From Escherichia coli (GTDB taxonomy: Bacteria; Pseudomonadota; Gammaproteobacteria; Enterobacterales; Enterobacteriaceae), in NCBI RefSeq assembly GCF_003334405.1, contig NZ_QOWM01000002.1: a DNA stretch of 64,000 nt; one strand, 5' to 3'. Made by a program: the position numbers and the translations under genes. Shown one piece after another: positions 6,130 through 7,175 of the stretch. Under the pieces are notes generated by a model. That model was not told the origin of the DNA. It did not search any database and was given only the letters and a program-made list of their open reading frames with translations. Each line of letters opens with the position of its first letter. The first letter of the stretch is position 1.

Positions 6130-6849
6130 ATGAAAAACGACGTCATTTCACCGGAATTTGATGAAAACGGCCGCCCACTGCGCCGTATCCGTAGTTTTGT
6201 GCGCCGCCAGGGGCGACTGACCAAAGGCCAGGAACATGCGCTGGAAAACTACTGGCCGGTGATGGGCGTTGAGTTCAGCGAAGATATGCTGGATTTCCCC
6301 GCGCTTTTTGGCCGTGAAGCGCCGGTGACGCTTGAGATTGGTTTTGGCATGGGGGCGTCGCTGGTGGCAATGGCTAAAGATCGCCCTGAGCAGGACTTCC
6401 TCGGCATTGAAGTGCATTCACCGGGCGTTGGTGCGTGCCTGGCTTCTGCGCATGAAGAAGGTTTAAGCAACCTGCGCGTGATGTGTCACGATGCGGTTGA
6501 AGTGCTGCATAAAATGATTCCTGACAATTCATTGCGCATGGTGCAGCTCTTTTTCCCTGACCCGTGGCACAAAGCGCGCCATAATAAACGCCGTATCGTT
6601 CAGGTGCCGTTTGCCGAACTGGTAAAAAGCAAACTGCAGCTGGGGGGCGTATTCCATATGGCGACCGACTGGGAACCTTATGCGGAACATATGCTTGAAG
6701 TGATGTCTTCTATTGACGGTTATAAAAACCTGTCAGAGAGCAATGATTACGTACCGCGTCCGGCATCACGTCCGGTGACGAAATTTGAACAACGTGGTCA
6801 TCGTCTTGGTCACGGAGTATGGGACTTAATGTTCGAGAGGGTGAAATAA
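6130..6849 (+). CDS. trmB: tRNA (guanine46-N7)-methyltransferase
   Basis: 239-aa ORF recognised as TrmB/YggH; divergent from mutY. Confidence 0.9.
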
Positions 6850-7175
6850 TGGCAAAGAACCGTAGCCGTCGTCTGCGTAAAAAAATGCACATCGACGAAT
6901 TCCAGGAATTAGGATTTTCGGTGGCATGGCGATTCCCGGAAGGTACATCGGAAGAACAGATTGATAAAACCGTTGATGATTTTATTAACGAGGTTATCGA
7001 ACCGAACAAACTGGCCTTTGACGGCAGCGGTTATCTGGCCTGGGAAGGTCTGATCTGCATGCAGGAAATCGGCAAATGCACCGAAGAACATCAGGCGATT
7101 GTGCGTAAGTGGCTGGAAGAGCGCAAACTGGATGAGGTACGCACCAGCGAACTTTTCGACGTTTGGTGGGACTAA
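6849..7175 (+). CDS. yggL: DUF469 family protein YggL
   Basis: ORF 6819..7175; start trimmed to [12 protein letters not shown] (108 aa); ATG overlaps trmB stop in TAATG. Confidence 0.85.
   Translation: MAKNRSRRLRKKMHIDEFQELGFSVAWRFPEGTSEEQIDKTVDDFINEVIEPNKLAFDGSGYLAWEGLICMQEIGKCTEEHQAIVRKWLEERKLDEVRTSELFDVWWD

Follow-up and report, generated by a model that had tools for sequence, protein, structure and literature searches.

The window, by which we mean the whole 64,000-nucleotide stretch of DNA analysed here, is a piece of the E. coli chromosome running from speC to bglA. A 6-kb query taken from it matched all 5,426 complete E. coli genomes, several at 100% identity, and the whole window is colinear with positions 778188–842187 of NZ_CP042893.1, with 17 single-base differences over the 64 kb and none at a gene junction. 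The RefSeq annotation of this colinear genome was transferred to window coordinates and gave a clean translation for every gene. In this annotation exactly 8 of the 49 adjacent co-directional gene pairs overlap (16%). All eight are same-strand neighbours, and only three spacings occur, −4 at four junctions and −1 and −8 at two each (Table 1). A preliminary description of the sequence had listed the same eight; all are present and none was missed among the 49 pairs. The coordinates attached to that list, 6840–6855, hold the first junction (trmB/yggL), and the other seven lie outside the range.

Table 1. Overlapping gene junctions of the window and other features discussed in the text
Feature	Position	Strand	Overlap or motif	Details
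trmB→yggL	6847–6851	+	TAATG, 1 nt	trmB TAA 6847–6849, yggL ATG 6849–6851
rdgB→hemW	11708–11715	−	ATGGTTAA, 8 nt	rdgB TAA, hemW ATG
yggT→yggU	12596–12599	−	ATGA, 4 nt	from annotation mapping
yqgE→ruvX	15480–15484	−	TGATG, 1 nt	yqgE TGA, ruvX ATG
yggP→yggF (glpX paralogue)	32800–32805	+	ATGA, 4 nt, in ATGATG	yggP TGA
fumE (yggD)→yggC	34293–34296	+	GTGA, 4 nt	GTG start; from annotation mapping
scpA→meaB (argK)	45988–45995	−	ATGATTAA, 8 nt	scpA TAA, meaB start
pepP→ubiH	55464–55467	+	ATGA, 4 nt	from annotation mapping
Weak promoter match inside trmB	6557–6585			9 of 12 positions
Raised constraint, last ~30 trmB codons	6760–6849
Upstream in-frame ATG of yggL	6819	+	ATG
yggL Shine-Dalgarno sequence	6835–6841	+	GAGAGGG	7 nt before the ATG
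Terminator-like hairpin	7317–7346	+		after yggL, before yggN
naRNA4 (Rfam)	10448–10518	+
yggU start, 96-aa form	12599	−	ATG
yggU start, older 100-aa form	12611	−	GTG
Tandem yqgE stops	15477–15484	−	TGATGA
sRNA ES036 (Rfam)	38903–38945	−
srsR/scpC convergent overlap	42702–42705	+/−	TTAA, 4 nt
76-aa ORF	49371–49601	+
SIB antitoxin RNA (Rfam)	52017–52167	−
6S RNA, ssrS (Rfam)	52816–52999	−

The yqgE/ruvX junction had been described as ATGA, but yqgE already ends one codon earlier, at the first of its in-frame stops, a TGA, which makes the junction TGATG with a 1-nt overlap. The gene ends in tandem in-frame stops, the second of which is built from the ruvX ATG and the first base of the ruvX Ser codon. 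At yggP/yggF the ATGATG motif holds two candidate starts, the first overlapping the yggP stop by 4 nt and the second by 1 nt; both are served by one strong Shine-Dalgarno (SD) sequence, GGGGAGG.

Overlapping pairs make up about 15% of E. coli ORF pairs (Burkhardt 2017), and 707 of 2,987 E. coli pairs (24%) are spaced at −8 to +6 nt (Huber 2023). The window does not depart from either figure (binomial p = 0.84 against 15% and p = 0.31 against 23.7%): it is not enriched in overlaps, their frequency is the genome average, and the word 'widespread' in the preliminary description was too strong for 16%. The restriction of overlap lengths to 1, 4 and 8 is non-random, with a probability of (3/7)^8 = 0.001 under a crude uniform null, and −4, −1 and −8 are the commonest overlap spacings in prokaryotes (literature including Huber 2023). 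The bare NTGA motif is nevertheless cheap, as an A, G or T precedes 8 of the 12 TGA stops of genes without an overlapping partner. Both this chance occurrence and the average frequency favour a reading in which gene packing yields the overlaps as neutral by-products that play no part in translation, NTGA and TRATG arising easily by mutation and the downstream genes initiating independently.

A further 13 co-directional pairs are separated by gaps of 7–27 nt, among them yggU→rdgB (+7), yqgB→speA (+8) and meaB→scpB (+10). Such gaps are the other typical operon spacing of E. coli, and according to the literature coupling is possible there too. The convergent genes srsR (+) and scpC (−) share 4 nt in a palindrome in which their TAA stops have bases in common; this overlap was absent from the preliminary list and is unrelated to coupling. 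The Rfam scan found no RNA family at any of the eight junctions. Its matches above the gathering score were 6S RNA (ssrS), a SIB antitoxin RNA opposite the ibsC toxin gene, naRNA4 in the yggM–hemW spacer and sRNA ES036 downstream of fbaA. The argP–rpiA interval holds a 76-aa ORF annotated as 'LysR substrate-binding domain-containing protein', which resembles a gene fragment.

Start codons of the downstream genes

When NCBIfam profiles were scanned against the longest-ORF translations, they began 0–6 residues from every overlapping start (for MeaB with the full-length model NF006958), and the extensions given by the ORF track to yggL (10 aa), yggU (4 aa) and ruvX (42 aa) fell outside them. The YggL profile (positions 1–108) covers residues 11–118 of the long ORF, that is, from the annotated Met. 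The YggU profile starts at long-ORF residue 7, the annotated Met being residue 5, and the RuvX profile at residue 48 of a 180-aa long ORF in which the annotated Met is residue 43. The profile for HemW starts at residue 7, those for GlpX (yggF) and UbiH align from residue 1, and positions 1–236 of the YggC profile correspond to residues 1–236. MeaB aligns from residue 3 with NF006958 and only from residue 17 with TIGR00750. Because a conserved protein family starts at each of them, the eight junctions are real. For hemW, yggF, yggC, meaB and ubiH the annotated start is also the first start codon of the ORF; the next in-frame start lies 6–25 codons downstream and would, with the exception of the second yggF ATG, cost conserved residues.

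Since such profiles derive from annotated proteins, we sought independent evidence for the starts. For yggL, the trmB–yggL loci of 79 Enterobacteriaceae species were fetched. TAATG was found in 71 of them, TAAATG in five (loci L050, L051, L053, L056 and L081) and TAAAATG in three (L059, L062 and L065; locus position ~1495–1503). In these last eight species, the Kluyvera group, the junction is longer than TAATG by one or two A's, which changes the spacing from −1 to 0 or +1 and puts the ATG equivalent to the upstream yggL ATG of the window out of frame. Two Siccibacter species carry an in-frame TGA 12 nt upstream of the yggL start. The upstream ATG is thus out of frame or blocked in 10 of the 79 species, which leaves the Met-Ala start at 6849 as the one yggL start that all share. 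A search of the PDB found no solved relative of YggL.

For ruvX, a metagenome scan with a pattern for the DFGTKxIGVA motif returned 118 ruvX-like loci. Of the 32 distinct junctions that overlap by 1 nt, nine, namely the E. coli-like loci and one other, have the GTG located 126 nt upstream of the ruvX start; in the window this GTG is at 15608 and the start at 15482. In the remaining junctions an upstream stop closes the frame, 15–105 nt away in all but one, and the usable starts are the overlap ATG or a GTG 3 nt before it. The 138-aa form is the one in the solved RuvX structures (PDB 1NMN and 1NU0), and alignment with the B. subtilis homologue 1VHX begins at residue 2 of the latter. The evidence for yggU is a formyl-Met N-terminal peptide covering residues 1–14 of the 96-aa form (TRAINSPOTTER N-terminomics supplement, PMC13245402). 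Among the entries listed in that supplement YggU was the only one of these proteins, b-number searches for the other genes being empty. YggU was solved (PDB 1N91) as an older 100-aa form that starts at the upstream GTG, so its trimming is a real historical re-annotation that is now experimentally supported.

This history shows start prediction to be error-prone, and together with the two adjacent ATGs of yggF it might suggest that the overlaps are artefacts of annotation and that the genes really begin elsewhere, either at the upstream starts of the ORF track or farther downstream. The data argue otherwise. The profiles start at the annotated positions, in relatives a frameshift or a stop removes the upstream alternatives, YggU has its N-terminal peptide, five genes have no upstream start at all, and downstream alternatives would delete conserved N-terminal residues; upstream starts would in any case lengthen the overlaps, not abolish them. 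An origin of the overlaps in misannotation has already been largely refuted and we regard it as extremely improbable. The trimmed starts proposed in the preliminary description are upheld by the profiles, by relatives with closed or shifted extensions (yggL and ruvX) and by the peptide at 12599, which supplies for YggU the N-terminal proteomics check that had been suggested.

Operon membership and evolution of the junctions

Operon membership is supported by the overlaps, since a terminator and a promoter would not fit between the genes. The adjacency of the tested genes is conserved as well: trmB and yggL are neighbours in 74 of 75 full-length Enterobacteriaceae species loci (the junction itself was read in 79), and a yqgE-like gene immediately precedes ruvX in 75 of the 118 metagenomic loci. 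Geometry and conserved adjacency thus bear out the earlier proposal that the paired genes belong to operons, and we infer that each pair is probably co-transcribed. The paired genes were not listed in the SMRT-Cappable-seq operon tables consulted, and a literature search for a yggS-T-U operon returned no direct E. coli transcript evidence. For trmB and yggL, a likely terminator is seen only after yggL, as a GC-rich hairpin with a T-run behind it, and suggests a two-gene trmB–yggL transcription unit.

The 1-nt overlap of yqgE and ruvX occurs in 38 of the 75 metagenomic loci; among the classified loci, none whose RuvX is 78% or more identical to that of E. coli departs from it. Beyond these, more distant loci have spacings of −4, −8 or positive gaps of 7–127 nt, values that depend on a heuristic start choice and on sampling that is not independent. 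The conserved C-terminus of YqgE, Gly-His-Ala-stop (GGN CAY GCN TGA), offers an ATG at −8 (CATG...) and another at −4 (GCATGA). In the metagenomic set (loci L084–L201), distant relatives seem to start ruvX at these codons and not at the −1 ATG of E. coli. This C-terminus illustrates how easily the −1, −4 and −8 arrangements interconvert.

Judged from these comparisons, the tested junctions retain tight spacing in related bacteria and their exact form drifts. The two halves of this observation bear in opposite directions on neutral gene packing. Drift of the spacing, through −1, 0 and +1 in the Kluyvera group and through −1, −4, −8 and positive gaps in distant yqgE–ruvX loci, is what packing alone might produce. 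Against it, a spacing of −8 to +1 has been kept, at trmB/yggL across the Enterobacteriaceae and at yqgE/ruvX in most near relatives. The functions of the paired genes fit a by-product better, as, apart from scpA/meaB, none of the eight pairs is known to encode interacting partners. Among short-distance E. coli pairs in general, about 30% encode heteromeric complexes (Huber 2023).

Ribosome-binding sites and the expression of yggL

SD strength was expressed as the energy of the duplex with the anti-SD sequence, for which random positions had a median of −2.4 kcal/mol and the other genes of the window a median of −5.8 kcal/mol. Five of the eight downstream genes possess an SD of their own. That of yggL, which lies within the last trmB codons, reaches −6.3 kcal/mol, yggU and ruvX −5.5 kcal/mol each, yggC −5.6 kcal/mol (AAGGA) and yggF, whose GGGGAGG stands upstream of the start, −11.0 kcal/mol. 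The values for hemW (−3.0), ubiH (−3.0, weak) and meaB (−0.7 kcal/mol) are near the random-position level, and these three SD-poor genes take in both 8-nt overlaps. Left to initiate independently they would be expected to be translated poorly, which speaks against the overlaps being mere packing. Folding 90-nt segments around the eight junctions revealed no structure beyond that of shuffled controls (z from −2.0 to +0.7). In the minimum-free-energy fold at trmB/yggL the SD is paired, but with z = −0.56 this fold is no better than those of shuffles. With such unremarkable folds, a route that works by opening structure is without computational support here.

The trmB/yggL junction showed a strong signature of constraint. 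Among 73 distinct trmB sequences from Enterobacteriaceae, the synonymous variability of the last 10 trmB codons was 0.13, compared with a gene mean of 0.52; none of the 229 sliding 10-codon blocks was as low. Hardly any variation is seen here in the rare codons AGG, TTA and GTA or in the Glu GAG of the SD, which also contains the rare Arg AGG. Constraint is also raised across the last ~30 trmB codons (Table 1). Dual coding, with yggL read from 6819, was considered as the cause and rejected: in the Kluyvera group the sequence upstream of the yggL start is identical despite the change in spacing that shifts the frame. Because the sequence is kept in spite of this shift, the constraint acts on the RNA, as a ribosome-binding region.

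Published ribosome profiling data (Burkhardt 2017 supplement) were compared for two of the eight pairs, trmB/yggL and yggT/yggU. trmB had a translation efficiency of 1.02, a ribosome density of 296.6 and an mRNA value of 290.1; the corresponding figures for yggL were 1.20, 611.1 and 509.1. In this one dataset yggL therefore exceeds trmB 2.06-fold in ribosome density and 1.75-fold in mRNA. With about twice the ribosome density on yggL, re-initiating trmB ribosomes cannot be its sole supply, and the yggL SD must contribute direct initiation, possibly along with extra transcripts. Part of the excess is at the mRNA level and could come from an internal promoter, a processing site or differential stability. 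A promoter scan inside trmB gave a single weak match, no more than expected by chance, which leaves the higher yggL mRNA without an explanation. At the second pair, yggT (translation efficiency 0.50, ribosome density 72.4, mRNA 146.1) was the more heavily translated gene and yggU (0.38, 34.4 and 91.4) the less, and the density ratio of 0.48 is compatible with coupling.

Translational coupling at the eight pairs

Termination-reinitiation (TeRe) as the only route implies that the downstream rate does not exceed the upstream flow. Judged by ribosome density, the downstream gene exceeds that flow at trmB/yggL and stays below it at yggT/yggU. These observations bear directly on a strict form of the coupling proposed in the preliminary description, in which re-initiation operates at all eight junctions and every downstream gene depends wholly on the upstream one. 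Published work lends it some support: in assays confined to the −99 to +30 region, four of five native E. coli −4 pairs were strictly coupled (Huber 2019), and coupling was found to require overlaps or very short gaps (Huber 2023). The lack of a usable SD at hemW, meaB and ubiH and the yggU/yggT density ratio fit as well. The higher density and efficiency of yggL, however, are impossible if it is fed by trmB only, and five of the downstream genes carry their own SD. The fifth pair of the same assays, bioBF, overlaps without coupling. Overlapping and non-overlapping pairs are moreover equally variable in relative translation (K-S p = 0.06; Burkhardt 2017), and depletion of RRF left coupling unchanged genome-wide, and re-initiation was argued not to be the main mechanism in E. 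coli (Saito 2020). We therefore regard uniform, strict re-initiation as unlikely.

An overlap by itself does not demonstrate coupling. In published studies coupling varies in extent and its mechanism is disputed; a recent review treats the mechanism as unsettled (Brown & Wade 2025). The reporter assays do show coupling in most tested overlapping pairs. Set beside the conserved spacing and the genes without a usable SD, they render independent initiation at overlaps of purely neutral origin a fairly unlikely account. Coupling at the eight pairs is a plausible candidate property, for which uniformity is ruled out.

The overlaps are real and the annotated starts correct, and we consider it very probable that the downstream genes are translated by a pair-specific mix of direct initiation and help from upstream ribosomes. 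In this mixed scheme the downstream ATG or GTG shares 1, 4 or 8 bases with the upstream stop, which places the ribosome-binding region inside the end of the upstream coding sequence. Ribosomes may then follow either of two routes. One would be direct initiation on the embedded SD, for which yggL, yggU, ruvX, yggF and yggC appear well equipped. On the other, ribosomes finishing the upstream gene would help by opening local structure or by re-initiating. The weight of the latter should be greatest for hemW, meaB and ubiH, which, because they are without a usable SD, are the genes likeliest to depend on upstream translation. At trmB/yggL the share of direct initiation must be substantial.

The eight junctions belong with the catalogued class of −4 NTGA, −1 TRATG and −8 NTGNNTRA overlaps (Huber 2019, 2023; Brown & Wade 2025). 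Spacings and orientation are the same, the frequency is alike (16% here, ~15–24% in E. coli), the SD is mostly embedded in the upstream gene, and there is no difference in kind. They likewise resemble trpB-trpA, galT-galK, hyfH-hyfI, astD-astB, ydbH-ynbE and menD-menH, coupled pairs of genes in one operon whose stop and start codons overlap or abut. In those six pairs coupling was measured, whereas the eight pairs of the window are known here from sequence and two of them also from ribosome density. Compared with the measured coupled pairs, trmB/yggL is distinguished by a downstream gene that is translated more than the upstream one, unlike what sole upstream feeding would give. In this respect bioB-bioF, with its 4-nt overlap, offers a precedent for a downstream gene that can initiate independently. 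bioF does so de novo with a weak SD, yet yggL, the clearest case of independent input here, has a good and conserved one.

Beyond this mixed scheme we see two stronger possibilities, each quite unlikely in our estimation. The first is that the three genes lacking an SD rely wholly on re-initiating 70S ribosomes; a 70S ribosome terminating at rdgB/hemW, scpA/meaB or pepP/ubiH might step back 4–8 nt to re-initiate. The second, separate from it, is that the constraint at the 3′ end of trmB encodes something beyond the yggL ribosome-binding site: the last 10–30 trmB codons might hold an extra processing or regulatory element behind the twofold expression of yggL. If true, the hemW, meaB and ubiH junctions would be natural SD-independent test cases for the disputed process of re-initiation in E. 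coli.

The eight overlaps are real, ordinary and already known compact intra-operon junctions, and their novelty is low. As biology they add nothing new, short overlaps and their link to coupling having been described for decades and quantified genome-wide. They also counsel caution, since an overlap is no proof of coupling, and at the focal junction the translation of yggL is roughly double that of trmB. Their main value lies in annotation: taken with the comparative data, the overlaps bear out the trimmed starts of yggL, yggU and ruvX, and they group the genes into operons.
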